DNA of 55,581 bases from a virus (IMGVR_UViG_3300032893_000059:1-55581), one strand, 5' to 3'. Positions 4,252 to 46,339 are shown, counted from the first letter of the stretch. Notes: a model not told the origin generated them from the sequence alone. Made by a program: numbers and translations.

Positions 4252-4289
4252 CATCCAGGTACTTGGGCGGTTCACCCAGTTTTCAGATC
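4252..4289 (-). promoter_or_regulatory. 38-bp conserved element, copy A
   Basis: GATCTGAAAA-ctgggtgaa-CCGCCCAAGTACCTGGATG. Confidence 0.75.
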
Positions 4290-4702
4290 GGGATTGCGGC
4301 GACGGCAGTGAGGCTCGCCTCGTACTCCGCGCGCTGTTGGGCCACCTGCTCGTTCTCCCATCGGTGGATCTCTTCGCGAGTCCAGCCACGCCAAGGACCG
4401 AGGCGCTCTTCGACGTCGCGATGGTGGGACCGGCAGAGCGAGTAGGCCCGGCGGTCGTCCTTCACGTTGGCGCCCATCGATGCCCCGTGCTCGTTGTGGC
4501 GCAGGTGGTACGGATCTCCGCCGTGGTGATGAGCGGTGCCTGGGGCCCGACACGGTCGCGTGCGCAGTCAGGACAAGTAGAGCGGATCGTCGAACTCGCC
4601 GCGGCCGCGCTTCTTGGGGCTCCAGCGGAGCGGTTTTGATCGTCGGAGCGGTTGGCGGCTTCGCAAGGGAGTGTAGCGCCGCAGTGGCGAGCGGCGGAGC
4701 AT
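4283..4702 (-). pseudogene. DUF968/HNH-like His-Cys protein interrupted by an in-frame TGA
   Basis: MLRRSPL...DPLYLS*LRTRPC...H...KDDRRAYSLCRSHH, all in one frame; the TGA at 4568-4570 sits where Trp is expected. Confidence 0.7.
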
Positions 4703-4705
4703 CGG

Positions 4706-5011
4706 CTACACGCCCCAGTAGCGCCAGTGCACGCGCCTCCCGGGATCCGGTCGCGGTGGCTCGTGGCGTTTGTACAAGGGCGGACGCTTTCCTGGCGGGA
4801 AGTACGCGTCCGGCACCACCTTCGCCGGCTGGGCTGCCTCATCCCAAGCCGCAAGCGCGGTCGAGCAGATCTCGTCATACTCCTGGGCGAAGACCCGGCG
4901 GCGCTCGGCGCTGTAGGCAATGAACCTCAGCCAGGCTTGCTCTCGCAGACGCTCGAGGTCTGCCGGCGCCCAGCCAATGCGGAACGCCCTGGCCTGTCCA
5001 GGTTGAATCAC
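4706..5011 (-). CDS. Hypothetical protein
   Basis: GTG start overlaps the upstream stop; fills the operon gap. Confidence 0.55.
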   Translation of the reverse strand: MIQPGQARAFRIGWAPADLERLREQAWLRFIAYSAERRRVFAQEYDEICSTALAAWDEAAQPAKVVPDAYFPPGKRPPLYKRHEPPRPDPGRRVHWRYWGV

Positions 5012-5541
5012 TTGAACATCTCCACTTGTCCGCCGGATTCCCGAGCCAGCTGGCTTAGCTCCTGTGCAGCGGCCGGAAGCCGTGCCACCCCAGCGAATGC
5101 CACCTGGTAGGCCCACTCGCGCGGTGGCCATTCGAGTGTGATGCCGAGCGAGAGCATCGTCGCCGTCACTTCGAGACCCATCGCCTCGGGACAGCGAGTG
5201 ACCCAGCGGGCCGCCTTCTCGTCCGCCATGAACCTCTCGATTTCGGCGTCAAGAGCAGCTCGAGCGCGGAGCTGCCAGTACAAGCAGCAGTAGAGCTGTC
5301 GCTCCGACCACCGTGGATACTTCGCGCGGAGAAAGCGCACGTGGTCGCCGAGCGCGAACGCGTTCCAAATCACGTGGGTCGGAAGAGACAGGTCGAAGTA
5401 AGCCTCGATGTGCTGCGCCTGCGGTGGGCAGCCAAGCTTCTTGCCAAAGTTGGGGCACCCCTTCGGGTGTAGCGGGTAAGGCTTCACACAGAGGCCACGG
5501 ACCTTCAGGTCGATGACCGGTGTTACCTGGGCGAACGGCAT
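5008..5541 (-). CDS. DUF2284-like Cys-rich metal-binding protein
   Basis: CPNFGKKLGCPP and CPEAMGLEVTAT motifs. Confidence 0.7.
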   Translation of the reverse strand: MPFAQVTPVIDLKVRGLCVKPYPLHPKGCPNFGKKLGCPPQAQHIEAYFDLSLPTHVIWNAFALGDHVRFLRAKYPRWSERQLYCCLYWQLRARAALDAEIERFMADEKAARWVTRCPEAMGLEVTATMLSLGITLEWPPREWAYQVAFAGVARLPAAAQELSQLARESGGQVEMFK

Positions 5542-5903
5542 CAGCCCCGGTCCTCTCTGGCGCGCTCGCCGAGCAGCTTCCACCCGTAGAGCCCGACGAA
5601 CCACCGCGACGGGTGCCCGGTCACCCATCCCCCGTAGGTCGCCACGGCTACGATGCTGCCCTCCTGCCTGCGCAGATGGGCGAGCGTGGGGACCTTGGTT
5701 GTCTCGTCGATAACCCCCATGGCCGCCATGCCGGCAAACGCCTCTCGAATCTCCATCGCCGAGGGCATCTTGCCGGCGTGGATGGCGAACTTCTCGCCCG
5801 GGCGCAGCTGCGTTGGGGACGGCCGCCAGTTGCGGTTCTCCAAAGGTTTCCCGAGGTAGCAAATGGCCCATGGCCAGGGAATCCGGATGGTGAGCGCCTT
5901 CAC
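5541..5903 (-). CDS. ASCH domain protein
   Basis: KALTIRIPWPWAI..GKPLENRNW...AIHAGK. Confidence 0.85.
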   Translation of the reverse strand: MKALTIRIPWPWAICYLGKPLENRNWRPSPTQLRPGEKFAIHAGKMPSAMEIREAFAGMAAMGVIDETTKVPTLAHLRRQEGSIVAVATYGGWVTGHPSRWFVGLYGWKLLGERAREDRG

Positions 5904-6262
5904 GTCGCGTACTCCCTTCGCCTGCCAGCCGCCACGAGCTCGGCCTTCCTTGTGATGAGGGCCAGTCGCCCGCTCGCCCCGCGCTTGCGCCAGTTTCCAA
6001 CCGAGAACGCCGTCGGCGGCGGCTCGTTGCCGGTGCGGATGCCGAGCGCCTTGAGCTGCTGGCACTGCTCACAGGGCGGATCCTGTTTGCACGGGCAGGC
6101 CGCCACAGCATCGCCGCGAGCCTTCTTGGCAAGGCAGCCCTCGCAGCGGTCATCGAAGGTCTTGGGCAAGCTCGGGTCACGTCCGCCGCGGCAGGCTGCG
6201 CACAGGTTTGCCTTGAGCCCCTTGCGGACGCGGCTGGGATGGGAGCTGCGGGGAGGCGTCAG
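5900..6262 (-). CDS. Cys-rich (three CxxC) hypothetical protein, possible CTG start
   Basis: CAAC, CEGC and CEQC; the frame exactly fills the gap between its neighbours. Confidence 0.45.
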   Translation of the reverse strand: MTPPRSSHPSRVRKGLKANLCAACRGGRDPSLPKTFDDRCEGCLAKKARGDAVAACPCKQDPPCEQCQQLKALGIRTGNEPPPTAFSVGNWRKRGASGRLALITRKAELVAAGRRREYAT

Positions 6263-7860
6263 ATGCCCGCCTTGCTGCCCTTGGGCTTCGGCACTTGCTC
6301 GCCTGGCATGACGATCGTCAGCCGGCCCGGCTTCTTGGGTTCCGGCAGCGGCTCCTCGGCTCCCTCGTCGTCGGCATCGATACCGACGATCCGAAGCTGT
6401 CCCGCCTCGACCACGGTGCCGATGATCTGCCAGCCGCCCCGCTTGGCCCGGCGAATGAACTGCTCGCGCAACGCCGGGTCCATCTGCTCCATCTTGTCGA
6501 CCCGCAGGAGCTTGCCGTCGGGCGCGATGCGCTTCACCAGGTCGACGCACAGCTCGGTCTTCTCGCTCTCGGATAGCAGCTTGAACACGTGGCCGTCCAG
6601 CGCGATGTCGTCGTCCACGAAGGTTAGCCCCGGGATCATGTTGGCCCGCTTCGCCAGTTCGGCTGGGGCGTCGTGGTCCAGACGCTTGACGATGTCGTCG
6701 AGCCGCTTGGCCTCGGCCTTGGCGGATTCCAGCTCGTCGGCCAGGGCGCCGGCGGAGGCCTGCGCATCGTGGGCGGCGCGGGCGGAGCGGATGAGGTCGG
6801 CCTTGGCCTGGGCGGTCGTGACCGCCTGGGTGGCGGCGGCAACTTCCTCGGCAGTAGGGGCCGCGATGGCGGTTTCGGTGAGGGTGGCTTCGAGCTCGCG
6901 GGCCTGCGCCCGGAGCGCGGCAGACTTGGCGTCTGACTTCGCGTGCTCGGCCTGCTGCAACTTGGCCCGCTCGACTGCTCGATCCGCCTGTTCGAACGCA
7001 CGTTCGGCTTCCTTCAGCGCGGCCCAAGCGGCATCCTTCGAGGCCAACAAACCGTCCATCACCGCCGCAGGAACGGGAGCGTGCCCGGCCGCGTCCTCTG
7101 CGTCTGCTTCTGCCCGAAGGTCGCTAATCTTCGCCCGCGTCCGCTCGGTACGTCTTGCCACGGACTCGGCCTGCTGGCGGCGCTGCTCCAGTGCTTCCAC
7201 CTGCCACTGCGCCTCCCGAACCGGCGCGTCCTCTTCACCCGGCAGCAGCACCACCACGCCCACGTGCTCGGGCTTCGCTAGCCCGTCGGCCTTGTCCTGA
7301 GCGAGCTTGAGCGCGTGCTTGGCGTCCTCCACCGCGGTGTTGGCCTTGGTTCGCAGGGCGTAGTAGTGGCCGTGCATCTCCGCCACCACCTCGAGCCCGT
7401 GCTTGCCCTCCTCGATCTCCCAAGCCTCGCCGGTCCAGTTCCTGGCGTCTTCTTCGGTCGCGGTCGCCGGCATGGCGGCCAACACCTTGCGGCGGCGCTC
7501 CGCCGATGTGTCGGACGCGAGCTTCAGCGGGTCGATGAGATCGGGGAAGCAGGCGTCGAGCTTCGCCTGCGGGCTGCCGGGGCCGAGGCCGTCGACCTTG
7601 ACCGACTTGGTGCCGTTGCGACGAACGATCGTTTCCACCGTGGCGGTGTCGAACTTCAGAAGCACCCGCCAACGGTCGGCGTCGTCGCAGATGTACTCGG
7701 GGCCAAATCCGCGCGACTTGAGAGCCGCATAGATGCCGTTGGCGAGACTGGTCTTGCCGGACTTGCTCTCGCCGATGAATTGGACGCCAGCGGTTCCGAC
7801 GGAAAACTTGGCGCTCTGGACGCCCATGAACTGCTCGATCTCTACATCCCTCAGCTTCAT
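6259..7860 (-). CDS. SMC/Rad50-like coiled-coil ABC ATPase
   Basis: Walker A GESKSGKTS, long coiled coil, LSESEK signature, Walker B LLRVDKMEQMD. Confidence 0.85.
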   Translation of the reverse strand: MKLRDVEIEQFMGVQSAKFSVGTAGVQFIGESKSGKTSLANGIYAALKSRGFGPEYICDDADRWRVLLKFDTATVETIVRRNGTKSVKVDGLGPGSPQAKLDACFPDLIDPLKLASDTSAERRRKVLAAMPATATEEDARNWTGEAWEIEEGKHGLEVVAEMHGHYYALRTKANTAVEDAKHALKLAQDKADGLAKPEHVGVVVLLPGEEDAPVREAQWQVEALEQRRQQAESVARRTERTRAKISDLRAEADAEDAAGHAPVPAAVMDGLLASKDAAWAALKEAERAFEQADRAVERAKLQQAEHAKSDAKSAALRAQARELEATLTETAIAAPTAEEVAAATQAVTTAQAKADLIRSARAAHDAQASAGALADELESAKAEAKRLDDIVKRLDHDAPAELAKRANMIPGLTFVDDDIALDGHVFKLLSESEKTELCVDLVKRIAPDGKLLRVDKMEQMDPALREQFIRRAKRGGWQIIGTVVEAGQLRIVGIDADDEGAEEPLPEPKKPGRLTIVMPGEQVPKPKGSKAGI

Positions 7861-7885
7861 TGTGATCTCCTCGACTTTCGTTTCG

Positions 7886-7940
7886 TGGAGCCGCCGGGAA
7901 TTGAACCCGGTCCACGTTGCTCACCGTGAGCTACGGACCC
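7886..7940 (-). ncRNA. tRNA-like RNA lacking an anticodon arm
   Basis: GGGTCCG-TA-GCTC acggt GAGC-aacgtgga-CCGGG TTCAATT CCCGG-CGGCTCC-A gives acceptor, D and T arms only. Confidence 0.65.
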
Positions 7941-8036
7941 AAAGCGCCGGCCGCTCATCGGTGCGGCGCCCGTGACTGCAAACCGGCAGTCACCACGGTG
8001 GCGGGACCATCCCGCCTGAATCGTTGGCGCAGCAGG

Positions 8037-8426
8037 TCAGAAGGGCACGTCGTCGTCCTCGGGTCGCGGCGATTGTCCGCGCCAGCCGCTGTCGCTCGCC
8101 TGTCCTCCGCCCGTTCCCGGCATCTCCTGCTGCTTCGACGGCGCTTCCGCCACCACTTCGATCCTCTCCCCCACGATGTCGGCGTAGACCTTGCCGTGCC
8201 ATTCGCGCCCGCCCAGCCTGCCCGTCACCTCGACGACAGACCCGACAGCGAGCCCGCGGGCTTGGTCGGCAACTCGGCCGAAGAACTTGACGGGAACTAA
8301 CTGCGGGTAGCTGCCCTCGACCTGCAGCACCAGCGTGACGATGTCCTTGCCGTTCTTGGTGGTGTAGACCTCCTTTCGGTCGACACGTCCGCGGCCATCG
8401 AAGGCGAATCCGCTCTTTGTTCCCAT
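8037..8426 (-). CDS. ssb: Single-stranded DNA-binding protein
   Basis: OB-fold (GSVVEVTGRL..REW) and acidic tail EDDDVPF. Confidence 0.9.
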   Translation of the reverse strand: MGTKSGFAFDGRGRVDRKEVYTTKNGKDIVTLVLQVEGSYPQLVPVKFFGRVADQARGLAVGSVVEVTGRLGGREWHGKVYADIVGERIEVVAEAPSKQQEMPGTGGGQASDSGWRGQSPRPEDDDVPF

Positions 8427-8430
8427 GGTG

Positions 8431-9207
8431 CTACGCAGCCTCCCTTGCGAGTGCGGCTGCGTCCTGGGTGAGCTGCTCCACTTCGGCCGGCGTCAATTCC
8501 TTGGTACCCTTGATCGTGCGCTTCAGCCGCTCTGACATCCACGCCAGCACGTCGGCGGGCTTTTCCTTGCCGGCCTTGGCGAGTAGGTCGACCAGGGCCT
8601 TCGCCGCGCTTCGGGCGCCGTCAGCCGGCTGCTGTTGGGTAGGCTTGTTGCCCGACTGGGACGGCTGCGACTGGGCAGGCTTCGTCTGGGATGGCTTCGG
8701 CTTCTCGGTCTTGTTGAAGCCGTTGCCCTCGGCGCCGTTCGCGTCGTCGTCGTCCTCGCTGGCCACGCCCAGCAGAGGGGACAGCAGGTAGCGTCGGTAG
8801 TAGGTCACCTGCGAGCCAAACTGCTGCGGCCCGCCTGACGAAACCAGCGGAGCCTCCGAGGCGAGCCACTCTCCCGAGGAGTGCAGCAGCATCACCCGAA
8901 TAAGCCCTCCCCCGATGAGCGCAACGTGGGACAGCTCCTCGCCCGACAGAGCCGCGGACGTGGCCTCGATGACGGCGCCGAGGTCGGCGTATTGGAACGT
9001 GTAGCTGCCGGCCGGTCGACCGTCCCTCGCCTGATAGCTGACCTTGCCCTCGCAGTTCTTGATCAACGGCTTGAACTTGCCCTGGGCGCGGGCCAGGGCC
9101 GCCGCCACCTTGCAGATGGTTGGCGATGTGGATGACTTGAACGGTGTCTGCCGCGCCTGTTCTGGCGTCGGTTGCTCTGGGTGTTGCTGGGTCTGTTCGC
9201 TTTCCAT
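8431..9207 (-). CDS. erf: ERF family ssDNA-annealing protein
   Basis: YADL...LLHSSGEWL...QQFGSQVTYYRRY.L..LLGVASEDDDDAN. Confidence 0.92.
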   Translation of the reverse strand: MESEQTQQHPEQPTPEQARQTPFKSSTSPTICKVAAALARAQGKFKPLIKNCEGKVSYQARDGRPAGSYTFQYADLGAVIEATSAALSGEELSHVALIGGGLIRVMLLHSSGEWLASEAPLVSSGGPQQFGSQVTYYRRYLLSPLLGVASEDDDDANGAEGNGFNKTEKPKPSQTKPAQSQPSQSGNKPTQQQPADGARSAAKALVDLLAKAGKEKPADVLAWMSERLKRTIKGTKELTPAEVEQLTQDAAALAREAA

Positions 9208-9240
9208 GTTGTCCTCGCTGTTGTTGAACCTGTTGGGCGC

Positions 9241-10263
9241 CTACCGCCGCCTCGCTGCCGGCGCCGCCTTGATGTTGCGCCACCCGAACTGTTCGTAAGG
9301 GTCGCCCGTCTTGATGCTCGCCAAGACCTGTCGCTTGAGGGCGGCCACCTCGGGCGGGTCGGCGGGGTTGTCCTGGGCGATTTCCTTCAGGTCGGCAACG
9401 CTCGCAGTCTCTCGGCCATCGCGCGATCCCGGGTAATACTCCTTGCCGGCTACCACGCAGCACCCCCCATTCCGCACGAACGCTTGGACCTGCTTCTTGG
9501 CCAGGTCACACGCATTTTCGAGGAACCGGATCCGCATGATGACTTGGCCGGCCAGCTCGCTGGTCAAGTCCAACTGTGGAATCTGAATCTCGGTCGGCTT
9601 CGTATCCTCGGTAATATCGGCCGCTCCGGTCTCTTCCGAGAACACCGTCAGCGCCGTCTTGGCCCTGGCGACCCATGCCTCGCAGTACGCCGCTTGCCTG
9701 CATCCCCCACACCAGTCCCCGGGGCATGCAACGGGTGGGCGCGCCTTCGCCGCCTTGATGCGTGCGAGCAGGGCCGGATGCTTGTCAGGCTCTACCGGGT
9801 TCGACCGTTCCACGAACGCCGCCCCGTCGTCGCCCACTTGGACCGTGGCCACGCGGAAGGGTCGCCCCCCGCAGGCAGCAAGTCCCATCGCAAGCTCGCC
9901 CAAGTCGTCCCCTGGTACAGCGTCAGTGTGCCAGTCGGTCGATGCCCACGAGACCACCAGCACGCAATCGGGCCCGTCGATGACTGCTCCCGGCTTCCCG
10001 CCTACCAGCACCTCTCCGGTGGCGGGGTCGATGAGGTCCAGCTCCTCGCCTACGGTGCGGACGGTGCCCGGCTCGGTCGACAGCCATTGCAGGGCGGCGA
10101 GCGCGGCCGGTAGCTGCGGCTGGTCGTTGGCGTGCCAGCATCGCGCGATCTCGGTGCGGGTGTCCACGAAGTCGCCCTCGCCGATCTCTCGGTGTTCAGC
10201 CGCCAGCTTTGCGGACAGCCCACAGCGTTCCAATTGCATCAACAATGCGGGTCCAAGTTTCAT
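9241..10263 (-). CDS. Cas4/PD-(D/E)XK-like protein with degenerate active site
   Basis: C-terminal PGDWCGGC...C cluster plus an N-terminal Cys; adjacent to erf/ssb. Confidence 0.55.
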   Translation of the reverse strand: MKLGPALLMQLERCGLSAKLAAEHREIGEGDFVDTRTEIARCWHANDQPQLPAALAALQWLSTEPGTVRTVGEELDLIDPATGEVLVGGKPGAVIDGPDCVLVVSWASTDWHTDAVPGDDLGELAMGLAACGGRPFRVATVQVGDDGAAFVERSNPVEPDKHPALLARIKAAKARPPVACPGDWCGGCRQAAYCEAWVARAKTALTVFSEETGAADITEDTKPTEIQIPQLDLTSELAGQVIMRIRFLENACDLAKKQVQAFVRNGGCCVVAGKEYYPGSRDGRETASVADLKEIAQDNPADPPEVAALKRQVLASIKTGDPYEQFGWRNIKAAPAARRR

Positions 10264-10274
10264 GTCGTTCTCCT

Positions 10275-10312
10275 CACCCAGGTACTTGGGCGGTCGGCCG
10301 CCTTTTCAGATC
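10275..10312 (-). promoter_or_regulatory. 38-bp conserved element, copy B
   Basis: GATCTGAAAA-ggcggccga-CCGCCCAAGTACCTGGGTG. Confidence 0.75.
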
Positions 10313-10551
10313 GCGATCCCGGCGAGTTCGGCCAGGTCAGACCAGGGCAGGCCGCACGCCCGGAGCGCATTGACGGCTGCTGTCCCCGGCCGGCTCCACC
10401 AGCAGCGCCACCAGTAGGCCCAACTCCAGCGCAGGTGCTTGCCGGCGGCGTGGGCGCGGTCCTCTGCTACCGCTGCTACCGCGATCGCGAGTGCCGTCCT
10501 CACGAAGTCGCGCGCATCCGCCGGCCTGCGTAGCATGATCAGGCTACGCAT
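10306..10551 (-). CDS. Hypothetical protein (Trp-rich)
   Basis: Tightly packed operon ORF. Confidence 0.5.
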   Translation of the reverse strand: MRSLIMLRRPADARDFVRTALAIAVAAVAEDRAHAAGKHLRWSWAYWWRCWWSRPGTAAVNALRACGLPWSDLAELAGIAI

Positions 10552-10561
10552 GGCCCTGCGC

Positions 10562-10735
10562 CTAAGTCGGACGCGTGCGACCGACCATCAGCGCAGCCAG
10601 CACCAAGCGCTCGATCGCCAGGTCGATCACGCGGTCGCACGCCGCCTTGGTGTCGTCCGAGTAGGCAGGCCCGGCAACCTCCAGACGTTGTGCAAAGGCT
10701 GCCCGAAGTTCCTTTTCCGCGTCGATCACTTTCAT
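10562..10735 (-). CDS. Hypothetical protein
   Basis: ATGA overlap with upstream gene and GGAG RBS. Confidence 0.55.
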   Translation of the reverse strand: MKVIDAEKELRAAFAQRLEVAGPAYSDDTKAACDRVIDLAIERLVLAALMVGRTRPT

Positions 10736-10977
10736 GTTGACTCCAGCACTGTGACCGCCTCGACCAGCAGCCTCTTCGCCTCCGCCCTGATGGCCGATTC
10801 CGCCCGGTCGCGAATCTCCGCGATGACGACGACTTCGCCGTCCAGTGTACCGACCCAGATGTTGCGGCCAAGGATCGCCGCTCCACCGCACACCAGCGTC
10901 GCTTTGAGGTGCCCGATGTGCGTGACCTCGATGGTGTATCCCGGGCGCAAGCACGTACCCCACAGCAAGTACTTCAT
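10732..10977 (-). CDS. Hypothetical protein
   Basis: ATGA overlaps on both sides. Confidence 0.6.
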   Translation of the reverse strand: MKYLLWGTCLRPGYTIEVTHIGHLKATLVCGGAAILGRNIWVGTLDGEVVVIAEIRDRAESAIRAEAKRLLVEAVTVLEST

Positions 10978-11183
10978 CGGAGATCACCTGACGGCGTGGG
11001 GTCCGGGATCGCGACGACGTCGCTGCAGGTCCGCCGAGTGAGCTGGTTGCGGTGCAGCCGGCATCCCTGGGATCCGAGCACCCGGGGCGCCGGGCAACCC
11101 TTGACCGCGCACTTGTCCCAGTCCGGCATGTGCGGGTTGTAAGTCGCGGTCGGGAGAATGATTTTCGTGCCTTGCTTGACCAT
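10974..11183 (-). CDS. Small Cys/His hypothetical protein
   Basis: C-x4-C-x9-C-x2-H; AGGAG RBS. Confidence 0.55.
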   Translation of the reverse strand: MVKQGTKIILPTATYNPHMPDWDKCAVKGCPAPRVLGSQGCRLHRNQLTRRTCSDVVAIPDPTPSGDLR

Positions 11184-11184
11184 G

Positions 11185-11577
11185 CTATTGCTCCTTGGGT
11201 CCGTACTTCCGAGCCAGCCAGCGCGCGACCGCGTCCACGATCGAGCTCACCTGGCGCATCTCCGGGTCGCTTGTCGTCCCGGACGGCTCGAAACGAAGGC
11301 GACTCCACTTGTCGATCAAGGTCGCGACCGGGACGCCATATTGGAGCGCGATGCTGGCCGTGATGCTCAAGGCGTCGAGCAGGCCAGAGATGGTCGAGCC
11401 ACTGCGATCGGCCTTGATAAACAGCTCCCCGAGCGACCCATCGGGGAAGCATCCCGTGGAGAGGTAGATCTTCAGTTCGCCGTGCGGGTGCCGCAGGTGG
11501 ATGCGCTTGGTAAGCCCTCGCCGCTCAACCGGTAGACGGCGGCGGACAGACACGGGGACAGACGTCGAGTCGTCCAT
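11185..11577 (-). CDS. Stand-alone TSCPD domain (NrdJ ribonucleotide reductase C-terminal-like)
   Basis: DGSLGELFI...SIALQYGVP...RFEPSG...SSIVD. Confidence 0.85.
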   Translation of the reverse strand: MDDSTSVPVSVRRRLPVERRGLTKRIHLRHPHGELKIYLSTGCFPDGSLGELFIKADRSGSTISGLLDALSITASIALQYGVPVATLIDKWSRLRFEPSGTTSDPEMRQVSSIVDAVARWLARKYGPKEQ

Positions 11578-11783
11578 TAGTTCTTCCCCCGGCGCTGCGC
11601 CTGATCGACCGCGTGGTCGACCGCGTCCTTGCCGTGGAGCTGGCACGCCAGCTTGTACGCCGTCTGCTCGTTGAGCTTGGCAATCACCGCCAGCTCATCC
11701 GCTCTGGCGCGTTCCTCCCGCGCCTCCTGCCGAGCCTTGGCCAGTTGTCGCTCAGTGCGTCGCTTGGATGTGGAGAGGCTCAC
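11577..11783 (-). CDS. Hypothetical protein
   Basis: GTG start at the edge of element copy C; stop overlaps the next start. Confidence 0.55.
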   Translation of the reverse strand: MSLSTSKRRTERQLAKARQEAREERARADELAVIAKLNEQTAYKLACQLHGKDAVDHAVDQAQRRGKN

Positions 11784-11820
11784 ACCCAAGTACTTGGGCG
11801 GCTGGACCCGTTTTCAGATC
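11783..11820 (-). promoter_or_regulatory. 38-bp conserved element, copy C
   Basis: GATCTGAAAA-cgggtccag-CCGCCCAAGTACTTGGGTG; contains the perfect palindrome CCCAAGTACTTGGG. Confidence 0.75.
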
Positions 11821-11828
11821 AGGATTCG

Positions 11829-12587
11829 CTATACGCCGATGATCGTGACCGCGACGTCGCAAAGGCTGCCCGAGTCGCCAGCGCCCTTCTTGTACCAGAC
11901 GCGCAGTACGTTGGGGTCGCTGCCGATGTTCGGATTCGTACCCACCATGCCGCCGTATGGCGACCCGCCAGTCATCATCGAGACCTGCGCCGAAAGGAGA
12001 ATCGTGTACAGTTTCGTCGTCGCGCCGTTCAAATCGACGTCGCAGTAGCTGTCTGCGGGCACGTTTATAAGGCGGAACGTGATGAACTTGAACAGCCCGA
12101 GTGTAGGGAGGGTCAGCATGTCGAACGTCAGCATGTCGACTTGACTGATGCTGGCGCCGTGGCTGACAGTCCAGCCGGTGAGTGCGCTGATGTGAGTGGC
12201 GCCGATCTGGCGGATCTCCTTTTCACTGTAGTCGCAGCGAGCCCAGTAGTCCGATTCGCCTTGGGTCAGGCCAACATCGGGCCGCTGGTTTAGACTCGTC
12301 GCCTTGCCTCGATAAATCCGGGCATCCTGCAGGTTGACCACGACCATACCCGGACCGAAGGTGTCGGTGCCCCGCCAGTATCGGATTCCCAGAAAGAGCG
12401 CCAGGCGCTGCTTGAGGAAGGTGATCCAGTCTCCAGCGACCTTGAAGGCCTGGTCCCAGGTTGAGGCGCTGAAGTCGTCCACTCCGTCCTCCGGCAGGTT
12501 GAGGATTGGATTGACGCCCTCATTCAAGGTGGGCGCTGGCGATGGTGGCTGGGCTGCTGTTGGATCGGGATTGTACGCTACTGGCAT
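11829..12587 (-). CDS. Tail fibre-like protein
   Basis: Last gene of the tail operon, after the baseplate genes. Confidence 0.55.
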   Translation of the reverse strand: MPVAYNPDPTAAQPPSPAPTLNEGVNPILNLPEDGVDDFSASTWDQAFKVAGDWITFLKQRLALFLGIRYWRGTDTFGPGMVVVNLQDARIYRGKATSLNQRPDVGLTQGESDYWARCDYSEKEIRQIGATHISALTGWTVSHGASISQVDMLTFDMLTLPTLGLFKFITFRLINVPADSYCDVDLNGATTKLYTILLSAQVSMMTGGSPYGGMVGTNPNIGSDPNVLRVWYKKGAGDSGSLCDVAVTIIGV

Positions 12588-12590
12588 GAT

Positions 12591-13370
12591 TCACTCCGGT
12601 GCAATGAAACGGGAGCCCGTGGCCCCAATGGTCCCGGTGTCCCCAACCTTGAGACCTGGCGGCCAGCCCAGCACACGCGCGCCGCTGGCCACAGGAACCA
12701 CCGAGGCCCCCACATAGTGTGCACCGCCCTGGCGCCACCGTTGGACCGTTTGGTTCAGGATGGCCTTTGCAGTATTGCCAGCGTTGTTGGTCAGGGACGG
12801 CACGTCCTGCAGGAACAGGATGCAGAAGTGGGAGGAGAACTGATCGCGCGCATCTAGCGTGAAGCCAGTGAGAAGGGGCGAAGGCACCACACCCGTCCGA
12901 TCCACCCGGTTCGCACACGCGTCGCACGGGTTGCTGACGTTGAGGTCGCCTCCCTCCTCGAGGTAATAGCGCCGGCCGGCGTGGTTGAAGACCGAGGTGC
13001 CCGTCGCGCCCACGGGGAACCCCTGCACCGCCAGCTCGGTCAGCAGCCCCTTGGCACTGCCGGCCATCTCCCAGGTGGTCCAGGCGTTCTTCAACCGTGC
13101 CGCCCAATCCGCCAGGGGCTCATCATTGGCGCCCGGGGTGGACCCGCCACGCGGCAACATGCGGTCACGGCCAATCTCCTCAAGGGCATCCACCATACCC
13201 ATCGCCGCGGCGTCCTCCGGACAGCGTGCGCGGACACCGGTTTTCATGCGCTCGACCTGCAGGTCGAACACTTTGCCCACAGATCCCCAGTAGGCCTGCC
13301 CGACGGGATCGTGCATCCACCCGGGCCCGAGCTCGGGGTTCTTGAACCACTCCTCGTAGAAACCGCCCAC
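12591..13370 (-). CDS. Baseplate wedge protein (P2 gpI/Mu gp48-like position)
   Basis: L..IGRDR.L.RG..E...WAARL..AW..W..AGS..GL motif; follows baseplate J. Confidence 0.65.
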   Translation of the reverse strand: MGGFYEEWFKNPELGPGWMHDPVGQAYWGSVGKVFDLQVERMKTGVRARCPEDAAAMGMVDALEEIGRDRMLPRGGSTPGANDEPLADWAARLKNAWTTWEMAGSAKGLLTELAVQGFPVGATGTSVFNHAGRRYYLEEGGDLNVSNPCDACANRVDRTGVVPSPLLTGFTLDARDQFSSHFCILFLQDVPSLTNNAGNTAKAILNQTVQRWRQGGAHYVGASVVPVASGARVLGWPPGLKVGDTGTIGATGSRFIAPE

Positions 13371-18383: not shown

Positions 18384-19931
18384 TTATCGGTACTCGACGA
18401 GCAACTTCTTCACAAGCATGTCCGAGGCCCCCGCTGTGTTGCCAGAGATCACTGACATCCACACGACGGGCACGTCGAGTGTGGTTTGGATGGCGCTACC
18501 CGAAAGTCGGCTGGCGTGCATCGCCGGTAGCAAGGTCAGGTAGCCGGGGAAGGACCCTCCTGACGAAGTGCCGTAGTACGCGTCGACGACGCCGGCAGAC
18601 ACGCGGAACATCATGACGTCGTAGTTCTGCGGGTTCGACGTCGTACCACCTCGGTAGGTCGTAACACCGGCCGTGTACGTCACGCTCGCGGATCCCGCGA
18701 AGCGGCCTCCGTTGTAGCCGAAGGCATTGGTGAACCTGTCGATGTTAGCGTACCCCCACGCTCCGCTGTTCCACCCTACGAAGGCCGCCTGCGCGTATTC
18801 ATAGTTGGCGTTCGGCGCGTGAGGTTGCGTGATCAGGAACCAGATCCGCAGCTCGGACCAGCCCGCGGTGTCCAGCACGCTGTTCAGGTTGTACGAGGAC
18901 GTGTAGAGCTGCCCGCCGGTCAGCGACGTATTGCCATTCAGAGAGTTGTTGGTGTTGCAGCGCAGGTACAAACCCGCGTGCGTGCCGTCGTTGATGTACG
19001 CCGTCTGCAAGTTGGCGGAATTGACCAGCGTCCAAGTCTTACCGTCGATCGTCTTGGTGCCGTCGCCGCCCGTAAGCAGGTTCAGCCCCGCTAGTCCGGT
19101 GTAGTCAACCGAGTACGCGGTGACGAAGGCGTTACTCTGCGCCGGCACAGACCACGCACCCGCACCGTTGAGGTACTTAGTTGAGTCGTTCGGCGCCGCG
19201 GGCGCGAACCCGTGGTGCCCCGTCGTCACGTTGCCCTTGGTGCTTGTGGACGTCGCAGTAGTCTCCGACCACAGGATGTACGAGGTCATGTCGGCCGTGG
19301 TTTGGTAGTCGGTCATTGACGACGTCGGCACGTCCCCCGATAGGTGCGTGACCGTGGCGTCCATCTTGGAGGTGAGCGTACCCGTCGTGAACGCAGTCGC
19401 CGACCCGTACGCCGACGTCGCAGCCCCGCTCGCGTCGAAGTCCCCCACCGCGTGCGTGGCGGCCGTGCCGAGCCCGTGCACGCTCGTTCCCGTCGATGTC
19501 GTGTGCGCGTCGAGGTTGTTCTGCACCGTGGTCGCGGCACCGGCGGGGTCGGCCCCGACCTGCGAGTAGGTCGGCGTCGACACCGCTGCGTCTTCCACGC
19601 CGCTCGTGACGTGACGCCAACCAGTTCCCGACGGGGTCGAGCCTCCCGCGGGCGTAGCCCAACTCCCGACGCCATTGAGATACTTTCCGGCGTCGTTGGG
19701 TAGGACTGGGCAGTATCCGTGCTTGCTCGTCGAGACGTCGCCGGTCGTGTTCGCCGTGAAAGTGACCTGCGTCTCGGGAATGACAATCTTGCTCGCGGGC
19801 TCGACGTGGCCCGTGTCGCAGTCGACGCGCGGAACACCGCAGATACCCGACGCTTCCGCCGGACGCGAAATTATCCCCGCGAAGAGCCCAGCCCAGAAGC
19901 AAGCGCAGACAAACACGATACCTTTTCTCAT
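18384..19931 (-). CDS. Fibre-like protein with internal repeats and a beta-rich C-terminal domain
   Basis: Two HG..P..PND..KYLNG.G.W..PA repeats; Thr/Gly-rich; hydrophobic N-terminus. Confidence 0.7.
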   Translation of the reverse strand: MRKGIVFVCACFWAGLFAGIISRPAEASGICGVPRVDCDTGHVEPASKIVIPETQVTFTANTTGDVSTSKHGYCPVLPNDAGKYLNGVGSWATPAGGSTPSGTGWRHVTSGVEDAAVSTPTYSQVGADPAGAATTVQNNLDAHTTSTGTSVHGLGTAATHAVGDFDASGAATSAYGSATAFTTGTLTSKMDATVTHLSGDVPTSSMTDYQTTADMTSYILWSETTATSTSTKGNVTTGHHGFAPAAPNDSTKYLNGAGAWSVPAQSNAFVTAYSVDYTGLAGLNLLTGGDGTKTIDGKTWTLVNSANLQTAYINDGTHAGLYLRCNTNNSLNGNTSLTGGQLYTSSYNLNSVLDTAGWSELRIWFLITQPHAPNANYEYAQAAFVGWNSGAWGYANIDRFTNAFGYNGGRFAGSASVTYTAGVTTYRGGTTSNPQNYDVMMFRVSAGVVDAYYGTSSGGSFPGYLTLLPAMHASRLSGSAIQTTLDVPVVWMSVISGNTAGASDMLVKKLLVEYR

Positions 19932-21256
19932 GTGAAAGACCCTCCTGTGACTTTCCAGAACGGCGCGGCGCCGTCTTTGCGAAGCTGAAGTTCGACGACG
20001 TCGTCCGCTTGGGCGTGGATGTCTTGCGGGTTGGTGTCACCCATCCGCGGCGTCTTGATTGCGGCACCGGATGACGGTGTCCCCATCGCCGTGATAACCG
20101 TCGCGTACTTGAAGGTCACCCTCACGCGCTCACCGCCGACCAGACCGGCGGTTTCAACCCCTGCGAGTGTGGCTCCGCTGCTCGTGCACATGAGGTTGCG
20201 AGCGCGCCCGAACCCCGCGATCACGCCGTCGTCGATCGCTACATTCGTGTACGGCTCGTCGCCCCCGCCGGTGCCCGACGCTTCCGACTGCACAGTAGGC
20301 GACTGGATCAGCGGTACGACCTCAACCCGAATCTTCTTGAGTAGAATGTCCTGCGCACCCGCGCCGGCCGACTGCAGCCCGCACCACGCCCAGTGGGCTT
20401 GGCTGCCGGGGGTGATAAAGAAGCTTCCGTCGGGGGTGATTTCCACAGAGATCTTCGGCGCTGCTAGCGTCACGCGATCCGGGAAGTCGCTGTTCACCGA
20501 AGCGCCTCGCCAAATCGTCCACGATGGGTGGCGCCATCGTACGCAGGCCACGTCGTTGTGATTCCCGGCAGCCTCGCCCCAGGAATCCGCGCTGCCGCAC
20601 TGGCTATGTACAATACCCGCGCGAAGCCCGTCCGTAGTGGTGTACACATCCTCCAACGTCAAGCGCAGCATGTGCGCGGCGGTGTAGGCCCCGGTCAGCG
20701 TGAAGAACCCGACGCCCGCCCCTTCGCCGTTCGCATCCGGCGTGTGTGGTACCTCGAACATCATCCAAACCCACGTTTCGAGCGCTACGCCCGGGGAAAC
20801 ATAGTTGAGCGGCGCCCACGATCCGAGCGCAGTGAGAGAGGTGTAGATCGCACCTCCTGTGAGAAGCCCGCCCGAGTTCACCCCAACGTTGCCGTTCGCG
20901 CGCAGATACAAACCCGAATGCGTTCCGTCGTTGATGTACGCCGTCTGTAGGTTCGCACTGTTTACCAGGTACCACTGGCACCCATCGATGACCTTCACAC
21001 CGTCGCCGCCCGTGAGAAGGTTCTGAGCCGGCAGAGTCGAGAAATCCATCTCTGCGGTCGTGTAGAAGGTGTTCCCCACCGCACCTGCCCGGCACGCCTC
21101 GAGCAGCTCAGTCAACTCCCTCTGCAGCTCGTTCTTGCGGTCCCGGCTCAGGTCTTTGTACCGCGAACCCCACTCGTACCAGAACGCCTCCGAGACCTTT
21201 CGCATGGCTTCGGTCACTTCTTTGGCGATGGGTATACCGACCGGGGTGTAGGTCAT
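19928..21256 (-). CDS. Structural/receptor-binding-like protein sharing a domain with 18384-19931
   Basis: NLLTGGDG.K.IDG..W.LVNSANLQTAYINDGTH.GLYLR is present in both proteins. Confidence 0.65.
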   Translation of the reverse strand: MTYTPVGIPIAKEVTEAMRKVSEAFWYEWGSRYKDLSRDRKNELQRELTELLEACRAGAVGNTFYTTAEMDFSTLPAQNLLTGGDGVKVIDGCQWYLVNSANLQTAYINDGTHSGLYLRANGNVGVNSGGLLTGGAIYTSLTALGSWAPLNYVSPGVALETWVWMMFEVPHTPDANGEGAGVGFFTLTGAYTAAHMLRLTLEDVYTTTDGLRAGIVHSQCGSADSWGEAAGNHNDVACVRWRHPSWTIWRGASVNSDFPDRVTLAAPKISVEITPDGSFFITPGSQAHWAWCGLQSAGAGAQDILLKKIRVEVVPLIQSPTVQSEASGTGGGDEPYTNVAIDDGVIAGFGRARNLMCTSSGATLAGVETAGLVGGERVRVTFKYATVITAMGTPSSGAAIKTPRMGDTNPQDIHAQADDVVELQLRKDGAAPFWKVTGGSFT

Positions 21257-34049: not shown

Positions 34050-34304
34050 ATGACGGGTAACGCTCAACTGGAGAACGCAAAGAGGACAGAAGACCCAGAG
34101 TTGGCGCCAGCCACCGCAGAGCAAGCGGCACGCGTCGCCCAGCTCATCGGCAAGCACAACAGCCTCGCGCGCACCGCAGTTCTGCTGCGAATGAGCCCGC
34201 TCACCGTGGCGAAGATCGCTGGGGGGCAAGTCCTCTCGCGCGGGTCGCGGGCGCTGCTGGCGGACAGACTGCGCGAGCGAGACGCCGCGGGAAAGGTCCC
34301 ATGA
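34050..34304 (+). CDS. Small Cro-like HTH protein
   Basis: SLARTAVLLRMSPLTVAKIAGG; first gene of a plus-strand operon. Confidence 0.55.
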   Translation: MTGNAQLENAKRTEDPELAPATAEQAARVAQLIGKHNSLARTAVLLRMSPLTVAKIAGGQVLSRGSRALLADRLRERDAAGKVP

Positions 34305-34525
34305 AGGACGGCGAGCGCCTCGTGTGGGCGGCAGCCTTCGCACAGGCGATAAGCGCCTTCGCGTTCGCCGATCCCAATGAGGCGGTGGAGCAGATGGGGA
34401 CAGCCGCCGCCAAGGCATACGGGGCGGTGGTCGCGCTTCGCAAGGCGGCCGAGGTTTTCGAGACATTCGGAGCGAAGCACGAGGGATGGGCCATGCTCAG
34501 AGACATGGCCGGCCTGTCACACTGA
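34301..34525 (+). CDS. Hypothetical protein
   Basis: ATGA overlap with upstream gene. Confidence 0.6.
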   Translation: MKDGERLVWAAAFAQAISAFAFADPNEAVEQMGTAAAKAYGAVVALRKAAEVFETFGAKHEGWAMLRDMAGLSH

Positions 34526-34540
34526 AAGGAAAAGATCCCG

Positions 34541-35077
34541 ATGAGTCAGAGCAAAGAGAACCCCGTGGCGCTGATGTCGGCGACCGTCCCCAACCCTCTG
34601 CCGGTCGGCTATAGCCTCGGCATCGATGTCCATCTGGCGGTCATGCCCAGGCGGAATATCATGATCGTTCCGGCGGACAAGCTGCGCACCGCCGACGATG
34701 GCACCACCGAGGTCCTCGTCGAAGAACCCGACAAGCCAGCAGAGTGGCGGAAACCGCCAGCACCCATCGAGGCCTGGCCGCTCGGCAAGCAGCTCCCGCC
34801 CGACAAGTGCGATCTCGTTGCCCTGCTCAACACCGTGGTTGAGGACACCATGGCGCCGAAGCTGGTGGACCTGGCGACTTGGAAAGCGCGAGGACGCTTC
34901 TCGGGCGGACCGCTGGGAGAGCTGGCGCGCGTGCCGCTGGACAAGTGGCAGGCGGCGCACCTGGGGGCGCAACGCGGAGCAGAGGCCCGGCTGATGCGGC
35001 CGCGAAAGGGCCCCCTTGGCACATCTATACCGCTTGACCTCGGCGACACCTTCGGCGAGAAGCCAGGGGATCGATGA
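34541..35077 (+). CDS. Hypothetical protein
   Basis: AAGGA RBS; 178 aa; ATGA overlap with the next gene. Confidence 0.65.
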   Translation: MSQSKENPVALMSATVPNPLPVGYSLGIDVHLAVMPRRNIMIVPADKLRTADDGTTEVLVEEPDKPAEWRKPPAPIEAWPLGKQLPPDKCDLVALLNTVVEDTMAPKLVDLATWKARGRFSGGPLGELARVPLDKWQAAHLGAQRGAEARLMRPRKGPLGTSIPLDLGDTFGEKPGDR

Positions 35078-35304
35078 AGTCACGCGTCGCCAAGAAGGTG
35101 CTTCTGCAATCGTTCAGGGGGAGGCCGTATCGCTGTTCAACGATGCGCCGTATGTGGAAATGGCTGTTTAGAAAGCACCCCGAGGTGCGTTCCCGTTCCG
35201 AGCGCGAGATGTCCGAAAGGCGCTCACGTTGGTATCATTGGATCGCCCGGCTTCCAAGTGCGGCCCAATTCGTCGAGCACAATCTGACCGGGAAGCTCCC
35301 TTGA
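35074..35304 (+). CDS. Basic hypothetical protein
   Basis: Operon packing. Confidence 0.5.
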   Translation: MKSRVAKKVLLQSFRGRPYRCSTMRRMWKWLFRKHPEVRSRSEREMSERRSRWYHWIARLPSAAQFVEHNLTGKLP

Positions 35305-35492
35305 TGGTCTCCTACCTGGCCGGCCTCTGCGAGTTCTGCGGTGAGTCCGACTCCCTGGCCACGCCCGAGGAGTGCAAGGCGGCTGGGCTCGATATCGATG
35401 TGGCAGCGTGCCGGGAGTGCCTCAAGCGCATGAACCCGGCCGCTGAGGGCGCGCCGCCGGCGCCACCACCAAAACCGCACAAGCCGAGTTGA
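35304..35492 (+). CDS. Small Zn-finger-like protein
   Basis: CEFC...CREC; TGATG overlap. Confidence 0.55.
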   Translation: MVSYLAGLCEFCGESDSLATPEECKAAGLDIDVAACRECLKRMNPAAEGAPPAPPPKPHKPS

Positions 35493-35523
35493 CGCCGCAA
35501 ACGGGCGGCGTGAGGATATCCGG

Positions 35524-35697
35524 ATGACTTGGCTATTCCCTCTCGTCGTTGTGGTCGGCGTCGCCCTGTTGGACTGGAAAGTCAACAAGGGACTGAGGCT
35601 GCTCAGGGAAGGCGTCGAGCTGCTCCGCCAACTCCGCGACGCGGCCAACCGCAGCGAGCAAGACAGCCTTGACCAGCGGGCCGATGGAGTGGACTAG
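35524..35697 (+). CDS. 57-aa single-TM protein
   Basis: MTWLFPLVVVVGVALLDW...; not in the ORF track. Confidence 0.5.
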   Translation: MTWLFPLVVVVGVALLDWKVNKGLRLLREGVELLRQLRDAANRSEQDSLDQRADGVD

Positions 35698-42358: not shown

Positions 42359-42369
42359 CTTACGTCGGG

Positions 42370-43313: not shown

Positions 43314-43508
43314 GTTCTCCTCCTTGGCCGCCGCCCTTTGTTCACATGGGAACTGCCAAGTGATTGTCTCTCAAATTTCCCGGCGACGCCAGTGCTCGCG
43401 CGGCGACTTGCACGCCCGTCGCGCGGGACCGCGGCCCGCGATAGGGCCACTCGCAGCAGGTCCGCGATATCATTCTCGGGCCCGCCATCGAGGCACATGC
43501 CTCTTGCC

Positions 43509-43876: not shown

Positions 43877-43911
43877 GATGTTAATGCTAGCACGTCGCTA
43901 GCGCTAGTCAA
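43877..43911 (-). promoter_or_regulatory. Promoter/operator, copy 1 of an AGCGACRTGCTAGCAWTAACA pair
   Basis: TTGACT-16-TAGCAT-7-ATG. Confidence 0.6.
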
Positions 43912-44695: not shown

Positions 44696-44731
44696 ACTGT
44701 TATTGCTAGCATGTCGCTTACGCGCGGTCAA
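44696..44731 (-). promoter_or_regulatory. Promoter/operator, copy 2
   Basis: TTGACC-17-TAGCAA-7-ATG. Confidence 0.6.
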
Positions 44732-44865
44732 CTCTTCTTCGGCCAGGGCAAGCCTGCGCTCCAGGTCGGCAATCCTCGCCTCGAGCACGGCGATCAGGTC
44801 GTCGGAGGTTCCCGGCACGAGCGGCACCCTAGCCCGATCGGGCGTACCATGCAAAGGAGGCCTCG

Positions 44866-45861
44866 ATGAGTGCGCGGATGAAACTCTGGCTTTGCAACTT
44901 GGCGCTCCTGGCGCCAGCAACCTGGTTGTTCTGGAACCGCTTCACCGTCTTTTCTCAGCCGGGCACGTTGGCCCGAACCATGGCCGGAATGCGAGCGATC
45001 CTCGATGGCTCTGCTCCCACGCCCTACCGGTACCGTCCGCTGGTGGCATTCGTGTTCGTGCATGGGCAGCAGGCATTGTGGTCTCTTGGACTTCCACCAT
45101 TGCGAGCACACGAGGCCATAGCCAGCTTTCTCCTCGCTTTTGGCAGTGCAGGCCTTGTGACTGGGTTACGCGCGTGGCTGGACTGCTGGATCGAGGATGG
45201 CGCCCTAGCCGCTCTCGGCACATCGATCGCCTTGGTGCTCTTTCTTGGTCTATCGCCCAACCTTCAGGCAAACCCATGGCACCTGGTGGAAGACTCTCTG
45301 ACCTGCTGGGGCCTGGTGGCTATACGTCGCGGGCGCGTCGGGATCGCAATAGCTCTGCTAGTTCTGGCGGCCCTTACCCGAGAGACAGCTGTTTTCTTCG
45401 CCCTGGGAGCCGCGGTACTTACCTGCCGCCGGGGCTGGTGGCCCGTCGCAATGCTCGCGGTCTGGGGGGTGTGCTACGGGCTGCTTCGTCTGTGCGTGGG
45501 ACCAGGTGCGGACTACAACACGCTGGCGCAGCGAATGATGGAGAACCGCGCCCACGCTGGGCACTGGCTCGGCTTGTGGGCTCTGTTCCTCGCGCCTGTG
45601 CTGGCAATGGGTGTCTATCGCCTGGCCCAGACCCATCGACGCGGAGAATGGCACCAAGCACGTACGGCGCTTGCACTTGCTGCCGTCGGAGGCTGCTACC
45701 TCTGCGCGTTGCTACTCTTCACCTTTTGGGCCGAGATCCGCATCGCCCTGTGGATTTGGCTTGCGCCGGTCGCCCTAAGCGGCTGGAGCAGGAGAGCATT
45801 GTTGGCCGAAAGAGAGCAGCGAGCAACTTCTGCCCGGCCCCGACCGATAAGCCTGGCATGA
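44866..45861 (+). CDS. Polytopic membrane protein, GT-C glycosyltransferase-like (moron)
   Basis: Many TM segments; PYRYRPL loop; LAALTRETA motif; opposite strand to its neighbours. Confidence 0.65.
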   Translation: MSARMKLWLCNLALLAPATWLFWNRFTVFSQPGTLARTMAGMRAILDGSAPTPYRYRPLVAFVFVHGQQALWSLGLPPLRAHEAIASFLLAFGSAGLVTGLRAWLDCWIEDGALAALGTSIALVLFLGLSPNLQANPWHLVEDSLTCWGLVAIRRGRVGIAIALLVLAALTRETAVFFALGAAVLTCRRGWWPVAMLAVWGVCYGLLRLCVGPGADYNTLAQRMMENRAHAGHWLGLWALFLAPVLAMGVYRLAQTHRRGEWHQARTALALAAVGGCYLCALLLFTFWAEIRIALWIWLAPVALSGWSRRALLAEREQRATSARPRPISLA

Positions 45862-46132
45862 CCACCGACCTCAGAGCGATGGCCCAAGAGTCCTGCTTCG
45901 TCGCCTCGCTGGCTCTGGCGTCTTCCCAGATTGACCTGGCGGCAGCTGCTCTGGACGATGCCGTGGCGGCGCTGCGACTGCGGGCCGATGGCCCCAATCG
46001 AATCGCACCAGGTATCTCGGCCCGCTTGCAGGCCGGGCAGAACATCACGTGGCCGAGGTCTCTCAGCAGCTCCCCCACAGCGTTGGCCATGATGGAGTTG
46101 CAGGACCTCGAGGAGGGGCGGGCCTTGGGCAT
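45719..46132 (-). CDS. Hypothetical CxxC protein
   Basis: GAGGT RBS after the tRNA; 3' end overlaps the convergent gene. Confidence 0.35.
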   Translation of the reverse strand: MPKARPSSRSCNSIMANAVGELLRDLGHVMFCPACKRAEIPGAIRLGPSARSRSAATASSRAAAARSIWEDARASEATKQDSWAIALRSVVMPGLSVGAGQKLLAALFRPTMLSCSSRLGRPAQAKSTGRCGSRPKR

Positions 46133-46158
46133 CAGCGTGACCTCTGCTGCCGTGCTTG

Positions 46159-46231
46159 TTGCGGGCGCTGGATTCGAACCAGCGATGGGAGGGTATGAGC
46201 CTCCAGCCTTAGACCTCTGGGCGAGCCCGCA
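46159..46231 (-). tRNA. tRNA with CAT anticodon (Met, fMet-like or Ile2)
   Basis: Acceptor TGCGGGC/GCCCGCA; anticodon arm GGAGG-CTCATAC-CCTCC; T arm GCTGG-TTCGAAT-CCAGC; CCA not encoded. Confidence 0.85.
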
Positions 46232-46301
46232 GAACGTGACCGCCACCGCGCCTTGAGCAGGGGATTCTTGGGTCGGAGCAGTTTTGGCGCGCTGGCGGTC
46301 A

Positions 46302-46339
46302 CACCCAGGTACTTGGGCGGTGCTCCGCTTTTTCAGATC
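46302..46339 (-). promoter_or_regulatory. 38-bp conserved element, copy D
   Basis: GATCTGAAAA-agcggagca-CCGCCCAAGTACCTGGGTG, about 70 nt upstream of the tRNA. Confidence 0.75.

Follow-up and report, generated by a model that had tools for sequence, protein, structure and literature searches.

Appropriation of sigma factors by phages is textbook biology and a known route by which host RNA polymerase is steered, and promoters read by the sigma-70 family carry -35 and -10 hexamers that lie roughly 16-18 bp apart. Conserved early promoters of non-canonical sequence are repeated between genes of the Streptomyces phage phiC31, some of them beside tRNA genes and with palindromic repressor sites nearby; to our knowledge, no phage sigma factor has been implicated in their use. 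For phiEco32 and phage 7-11, the part of the published account drawn on here describes promoters of the phage sigma factor that were found as over-represented intergenic motifs, present also upstream of the sigma gene (PMC4331800). Promoters of sigma-32 have the -35 consensus CTTGAA, with CTTGAA-N14-CCCCATTTA as the dnaKp1 scaffold in the section of the source used (PMC10216364), and stoperators are, in the cited portion of their description, numerous asymmetric sites, each bound by a monomeric repressor (PMC9283540). Here we describe four copies, A to D, of a 38-bp two-block element in the genome of an uncultured wetland phage (IMGVR_UViG_3300032893_000059, a complete IMG/VR virus record of 55,581 bases, hereafter the window). 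These elements are probably phage-specific promoters, at which the host RNA polymerase would act together with the sigma-like factor that the phage itself encodes at 1074-1667.

The locus resembles phiEco32 and the Salmonella phage 7-11 in pairing a phage sigma-70-family factor with a short, highly conserved intergenic motif on the coding strand, and, like the phiEco32-type phages, it has the motif upstream of the sigma gene itself, an order that would make expression self-feeding. The motifs given in that account, however, are single blocks near -10 (TAATGTATA; TGATGT plus TATA), whereas here there are two blocks; both phages are treated there as lytic and carry an anti-sigma gene, whereas integrase and XRE genes are present in the wetland phage, whose sigma factor comes from a different, poorly annotated clade (PMC4331800). 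Like sigma-32 (RpoH) promoters, to the extent that the source covers them, the elements are built of two parts, a -35 block that contains GAA and an extended -10 block rich in C (CCC-A--TA) (PMC10216364), although the match is partial, the spacer is one base shorter and related phages have GTAAAA instead of TGAAAA. With the stoperators of Cluster A mycobacteriophages, as the cited portion characterizes them, they share asymmetry, short intergenic gaps, orientation with transcription and a genome-wide spread; unlike stoperators, there are four two-block sites with a free 11-nt gap and no near-misses, in a phage with its own sigma factor (PMC9283540), and the plan of one asymmetric site in many copies was not found.

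Anatomy and conservation of the elements

A scan of the whole window with the pattern GATCTGAAAA-N9-CCGCCCAAGTACYTGGRTG returned four sites without a mismatch, all on the minus strand, and 100 dinucleotide-preserving shuffles of the window returned none. With the two blocks named by their likeness to promoter blocks, the copies are as follows.

Element A, 4252-4289, minus strand: -35-like CTGAAAA at 4286-4280, -10-like GCCCAAGTAC at 4268-4259
Element B, 10275-10312, minus strand: -35-like block at 10309-10303, -10-like block at 10291-10282
Element C, 11783-11820, minus strand: -35-like block at 11817-11811, -10-like block at 11799-11790
Element D, 46302-46339, minus strand: -35-like block at 46336-46330, -10-like block at 46318-46309

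All four copies agree at 27 of the 29 fixed positions; at each of the other two, a transition sets one copy apart (T at position 32 in copy C, A at position 36 in copy A), while the spacer measures 9 nt in every copy and differs in sequence in each. Degenerate copies were not found in a window scan that allowed up to 11 mismatches: since the next-best sites miss 10 or 11 of the 29 positions, that is, at least 10, the family is all-or-none. Copy C contains a perfect 14-nt palindrome, CCCAAGTACTTGGG, where copies A, B and D carry one C for T. On a hand-made map of 76 features, by which 7% of the window is non-coding, the copies comprise 31 (A), 31 (B), 37 (C) and 36 (D) non-coding bases out of 38, and only 5.5% of all 38-nt segments hold at least 30. 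All four copies lie in short gaps between co-oriented genes and point as the genes do; the TGA of element A is the stop codon of the upstream open reading frame (ORF) 4283-4477, and that of element B, which occupies most of a 42-nt intergenic gap, is the stop of ORF 10306-10551. The original prediction, made from the window's sequence, had described four co-oriented 38-bp copies with 27 of 29 positions invariant, a near-palindrome that is perfect in copy C, a location at a gene junction in every case, and a TGA shared with the upstream gene in A and B. Each of these points holds in the scan, the four-copy comparison and the ORF map with its downstream features; the observation is confirmed and is far from chance.

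The element also occurs in other phages (conservation in relatives had been named as a check on the prediction): five more copies were found in three related genomes, here called G001, G003 and G004. A terminase search, independent of the element, brought up two related IMG/VR contigs with 79% (G001) and 72% amino acid identity. G001 (37.5 kb) is collinear with 51.9-21.4 kb of the window at 66-79% nucleotide identity, and a relaxed scan revealed two sister elements, TCCGTAAAAAGTAGGCCAGTGCCCAAATAC, both on the coding strand, one of them 20 nt before tRNA-Met, the same position as that of element D. A degenerate pattern made from both phages and scanned over IMG/VR then matched 36 stretches, two of them in G001, one in G003 and one in G004; for 28 (G+C 0.30-0.51) only the flanks were read, and these were taken as chance matches without a test, whereas L036, L022 and L039 gave no tblastx match to the window and L037 gave short, weak ones only. 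Five segments of G003 (54.5 kb) are collinear with the window, in circular permutation, and this genome carries two copies of the element; G004 (17.6 kb), a distant relative by tblastx, carries one. G001 and G004 are fragments, 60% and 20% complete. No exact match to the right-half pattern was found in IMG/VR. At least one further genome carries the element, since a 9,964-nt contig of the wetland run X1 (record 7) matches the window only at 10275-10312, with four differences; the contig probably belongs to a further member of this phage group, one whose flanks are unrelated.

The elements keep their positions ahead of tRNA-Met, the recombination operon and one and the same small gene, although their flanks have diverged. 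In G003, the first element precedes by 7 nt the ATG of a 90-aa ORF; the C-terminal end of this ORF matches the ORF that follows element C (E 9e-7, with 34% identity over 32 aa). The second shares bases with the TAA stop of the gene before it and stands at the head of a run containing the counterpart of a 533-aa protein encoded downstream of element B. An 86-nt leader follows this second element, and a long G+C-rich inverted repeat, CCGCCGCCCGAG ... CTCGGGCGGCGG, lies in it (G003 34355-34425, equal to L050 14355-14425, minus strand), just before the ribosome-binding site of the first gene past the element; it might serve as an attenuator or as a hairpin that controls translation.

Alignment of the nine copies from the four phages leaves 12 of 66 columns invariant, all within two blocks, so that the core shared by 9/9 copies reads C..AAAA, a fixed 11 free nucleotides, and G..CAA.TAC; downstream of TAC no column is conserved. 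Private to the four copies of the window are GAT at the 5' end, CC at positions 20-21 and a 3' palindrome arm, YTGGRTG. Because the CC is private, the free spacer is 11 nt rather than 9: the prediction of a constant 9-nt spacer stands within this phage and gives way once the relatives are included. GATC forms the first bases of all four elements of this phage and of none in the relatives. A pattern of the invariant positions alone finds four, two, two and one sites in the four phages, always on the coding strand, against a shuffle mean of 0.0, and no additional site with one mismatch exists in these genomes; the counts are descriptive, as the pattern was derived from these same copies. The -35 block varies by phage, with TGAAAA here and GTAAAA in the relatives, while the -10 block is kept.

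Two further regularities concern the position of the blocks. In the nine copies, the next start codon or tRNA follows TAC at a distance of 67, 18, 6, 77, 14, 20, 7, 86 and 19 nt; a GTG or ATG begins 7-8 nt past TAC in two of them, and a Shine-Dalgarno sequence begins there in two others. That this distance is never below 6 nt fits a transcription start about 7 nt after TAC. If the -10 hexamer is read as AANTAC, the -35 hexamer becomes TCTGAA or CCGTAA with a 17-bp spacer. The arrangement of a bipartite sigma-70-type promoter, with a fixed spacing between blocks and a location upstream of genes in their orientation, was found throughout, all nine copies being co-oriented.

The sigma-like protein and its candidate promoters

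The second component of the reading is a protein, P0001, encoded in the window.

P0001 gene, 1074-1667, minus strand: 197 aa, predicted divergent sigma-70-family protein with regions 2 and 4, downstream of element A after the XRE, integrase and HNH genes

The protein shows a weak match to PHROG 1740 'RNA polymerase sigma factor' over residues 121-210 (C-terminal; E 1.7e-4), and an index of 5.8 billion proteins yielded five relatives only. An exhaustive profile search found 191 relatives at E<=1e-3 among 1.8 billion representative proteins, and a family alignment was built from 62 of the 153 relatives listed. Twenty of these 62 carry a Pfam Sigma70_r2 match, and 58 of the 60 best PDB matches of the 62-member profile are sigma-factor chains, with SigA at 1.2e-10 (region 2), RpoS at 7.7e-10, RpoH at 8.2e-10 and FliA at 1.1e-8. 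The matches to RpoH and FliA span both domains and reach positions 179-181 of the 190 in the profile; this likeness to solved RpoH is not special, as SigA, RpoS and FliA match about equally well. In the Atlas, all ten of the ten best family-bearing matches are Sigma70 r2/r4 clusters (score 0.96), and the neighbours of P0001 are all small sigma-70 r2/r4 proteins, mostly viral. A region 4 helix-turn-helix is indicated by PHROG 1740, by the span of the profile and by Sigma70_r4 among the Atlas neighbours. We conclude from these matches that the predicted product is probably a divergent two-domain sigma-70-family factor.

Its closest relatives are P0002 (a sigma protein of 64% identity) and P0004 (encoded on a 19.6-kb contig), and G003 has an ortholog (E 4e-40, 48% identity). 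Locus searches of IMG/VR with the single nuclease or sigma protein returned no relatives, searches with the sigma alignment returned none in IMG/VR or the species genomes, and a wider alignment returned G003 only. The sigma gene was found in both records that extend past a B-type element into the stretch where the gene lies. On a 2-kb metagenome contig, L007 (1356-1569), a distant sigma relative comes immediately after a counterpart of ORF 4283-4477. As the window has XRE, integrase and HNH genes between these two, the arrangement suggests that the three were inserted into an older ORF/sigma gene pair. Between the same two genes L007 has a TGA, GAAAA and an AT-rich block, which are too weak to be counted as an element.

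Two unlike blocks at a fixed distance, in one orientation and just upstream of genes and tRNAs, give the elements the look of -35/-10 promoters, and the all-or-none copies, the phage-variable -35 block and the occurrence of the sigma gene together point to the phage's own sigma factor as the reader. The original prediction that the elements are promoters for this factor is supported in part and fares best among the readings compared: the conserved halves, fixed spacing, co-orientation and sigma family speak for it, and the link between factor and sites we infer. Under this reading, host core RNA polymerase with the 1074-1667 factor would bind CTGAAAA as the -35 element and GCCCAAGTAC as an extended -10 element, the blocks lying 11 bp apart, and would begin transcription about 7 nt after TAC (near 4253-4251 for element A). 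Four co-directional units would then be launched around a probably circular genome: D with tRNA-Met and the packaging, head and tail genes; C with a small-gene cluster; B with the nuclease/ERF/SSB recombination genes; and A with XRE, integrase, HNH and the sigma gene, the last of which would place the sigma factor under positive feedback.

Several observations weigh against this reading. P0001 alone has no Pfam sigma match at E<=0.01, and a six-sequence profile gave only insignificant scores against solved sigma factors (E 0.2 and 0.64). No sigma gene was seen in G001 or G004, both element-bearing and both incomplete, and four short metagenome contigs with sigma relatives at 35-54% identity (L005-L008) have no match to the core. 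The -10 block lacks the T usual at the end of the sigma-70 hexamer and its register is uncertain; YTGGRTG, the 7 nt after TAC, is also kept in this phage and is not required by a plain promoter; and the blocks partly resemble sigma-32 promoters. A search for RNA runs with the sequence of the window listed none. Promoter identity, start sites and recognition by this factor are, moreover, read from sequence, that is, from the anatomy, conservation pattern, positions and sigma-family membership observed or computed here.

Other explanations and the palindrome

The partial resemblance to sigma-32 promoters leaves a host alternative sigma factor, for instance of the sigma-32 type, as a rival reader of the elements, with the phage sigma serving other sites. 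Geometry and conservation would suit a promoter of this kind equally well. When compared with the sigma-32 type (CTTGAA, a CCCCATNTA-like -10 and about 14 bp between them), TCTGAA-N13-GCCCAAGTA of the window matches at 4/6 and 6/9 positions with a 13-bp spacer, one base shorter. The relatives fit less well, as the -35 block of G001 and G003, CCGTAAAA, matches at only 2/6 in register while the -10 is kept. The -35 block thus changes between phages, all-or-none copies are typical of a phage-owned specificity, and the exact 19-letter motif is absent from 185,579 species genomes; we regard recognition by a host factor as unlikely. Promoters for a phage RNA polymerase were set aside, as no polymerase-like protein was found among the 80 ORFs scanned. 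The single orientation between genes, like that of Cluster A mycobacteriophage stoperators in the portion of the study cited (PMC9283540), would also suit asymmetric operators, or blocks to elongation, to which a phage protein such as XRE binds and which have no promoter activity of their own. An XRE gene does follow copy A, and this phage has a 14-nt near-palindrome and seven extra kept bases past TAC. The palindrome arm, however, is absent from 5/5 copies of the relatives, a search of G001, G003 and G004 gave no counterpart of either the XRE or the integrase gene, there are just four copies in the genome, and the two blocks, 11 bp apart and unlike each other, form neither a repeat nor a palindrome. 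The next start codon or tRNA, moreover, is never closer than 6 nt to TAC and twice lies exactly 6-7 nt from it; we rate such a role as quite unlikely.

A function in RNA, as a processing site or structured intercistronic signal, would suit elements on the coding strand between co-transcribed genes, and the G-rich spacer of individual copies is able to pair with CCGCC. The possible pairings vary by copy, however, with the spacer unconserved; RNAalifold predicted no base pairs across the nine copies, and the only Rfam match is the tRNA, which makes this role very improbable. The original prediction had offered one more alternative, that the elements are direct-repeat sites at which the phage tyrosine recombinase excises the modules between them, and had proposed a search for hybrid junctions. 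Four direct repeats, an integrase-like gene at 2513-3616 and a short palindrome in the right half speak for such sites. Yet the palindrome arms are only 5-6 bp long and missing in the relatives, there is no shared crossover region because the centre differs in every copy, and excision would strip the phage of head/tail or replication modules that are essential to it; the layout of inverted arms flanking one identical crossover region, together with recombinant junctions, was not found. Contigs of three DNA runs over 3500-12500 gave two listed joints and seven with inserted letters, none of which ends in an element, a weak negative given that contigs hide rare forms. This alternative thus found no support, and we consider it the most remote of all.

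The palindrome itself calls for a separate judgement. Among the four window copies its 3' arm does not vary, although their spacers have diverged fully, and the arm must therefore be under some constraint here; being missing in all five copies of the relatives, it can mark at most an operator added privately by this phage. The overlapping operator of the original prediction accordingly keeps its palindrome in this phage and loses its 3' arm elsewhere. That the palindrome is such an added operator is a tentative reading to which we would not give even odds; the arm could instead reflect a preference for an initial transcribed sequence. The XRE protein (3877-4191) is a speculative candidate for the binder. 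Unlike the palindromic repressor sites of phiC31, the palindrome here is private to one phage. One could join these parts into a single picture, in which the elements would be cognate promoters of an unrecognised phage sigma clade, mostly invisible to Pfam and with a sigma-32-like grammar, the sigma factor would drive every module including its own operon, and a palindrome-bound repressor would shut all four promoters, making up a genome-wide lysis-lysogeny switch in a temperate myovirus. As a whole, this combined scheme is possible but doubtful.

Gene order around the elements and its implications

Nearly all genes of the window lie on the minus strand. Reading that strand from 55 kb, the replication module comes first, with a replication initiator, a D5-like protein, two methyltransferase-like proteins, a Holliday-junction resolvase and a BCS1-like AAA ATPase; element D and tRNA-Met follow, and then the structural module in the order terminase, portal, head protein, protease, major head protein, tail sheath, tape measure and baseplate. 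The first products after the elements are these.

XRE-type helix-turn-helix gene, 3877-4191, minus strand: HTH_31, E 1.6e-13; first gene after element A
PD-(D/E)XK (DUF2800-type) nuclease gene, 9241-10263, minus strand: first gene after element B
68-aa ORF, 11577-11783, minus strand: directly after element C; its counterpart in G003 also directly follows an element
tRNA-Met (CAT), 46158-46231, minus strand: first product after element D; G001 likewise pairs an element with tRNA-Met

Element D stands 70 nt upstream of tRNA-Met, heading the run of packaging, head and tail genes, and the stop of the upstream ORF 46338-46535 overlaps its first two bases. Element C nearly fills the 45-nt gap behind the last gene of the tail module, where ORF 11829-12587 stops 9 nt before it, and a cluster of small genes, among them one for a TSCPD-domain protein, lies downstream, behind the baseplate and tail genes. 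The GTG at 11783 begins about 7 nt past the TAC of this element, so its mRNA may be leaderless. Element B is followed by GAGGAG and by the ATG at 10263, 18 nt past TAC, which opens an operon for the nuclease (no Pfam match; Atlas score 0.98 to DUF2800/PDDEXK_1 clusters), an ERF protein (5e-11) and an SSB-like OB-fold protein; a gene for a 533-aa protein of no assigned function follows. After element A, the ATG of the XRE gene at 4191 lies 67 nt past TAC with AGGAGG as ribosome-binding site; the integrase-like gene 2513-3616 (PHROG 1, E 9e-17), HNH and the sigma-like gene come next in this order.

Between the XRE and integrase genes, the minus strand has a 260-nt gap (3617-3876) that is among the largest intergenic gaps. 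It contains the sole sigma-70-like promoter match in 1-13000 (TTGACG-16-TATGGT at 3668-3641; one site against 1.3 expected by chance), and the gap could hold a host-read promoter for integrase, HNH and sigma, or an attachment site. Both contig ends (1-420 and 55397-55576) carry a GCAGCG-type hexamer repeat that, on the minus strand, encodes an Ala/Asp-rich low-complexity stretch in one open frame running from a start at 745 through 1/55581 to a stop at 54729. As both ends share the repeat in one frame, the genome is probably circular, cut by the assembly inside one gene.

Elsewhere in the window, four small ORFs (74, 178, 76 and 57 aa) form a plus-strand island at 34301-35697 within the minus-strand structural module; none of the four has a Pfam match, and the island could be a moron or a lysogeny cassette. 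The tail genes 18384-19931 and 19928-21379 (about 500 aa each) share repeats that lie 1,940 nt apart (79% identity over 81 nt and 73% over 49 nt); neither has a PHROGs match, and they are probably tandem paralogues of a tail-fibre-like gene. Two paralogous genes, 49861-50391 and 51244-51732, each have a match to PHROG 111 'DNA methyltransferase', confined to its N-terminal part (E 1e-29 and 7e-21). A megablast search of GenBank phages with the first 25 kb of the window gave no match.

A phage sigma factor with promoters of its own is ordinary in kind, and since sigma appropriation is already textbook knowledge, the finding leaves the view of phage transcription unchanged; what is new is that the factor belongs to a poorly known sigma clade. 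The proposed pairing of factor and motif was found solely through the comparison of uncultured phage genomes. If the reading is right, it would provide a regulon map for a 55.6-kb wetland phage, made up of four transcription units with the sigma gene inside one of them, and an orthogonal sigma/promoter pair to try in synthetic circuits, and a poorly annotated clade of small phage sigma factors would gain a defined promoter motif.

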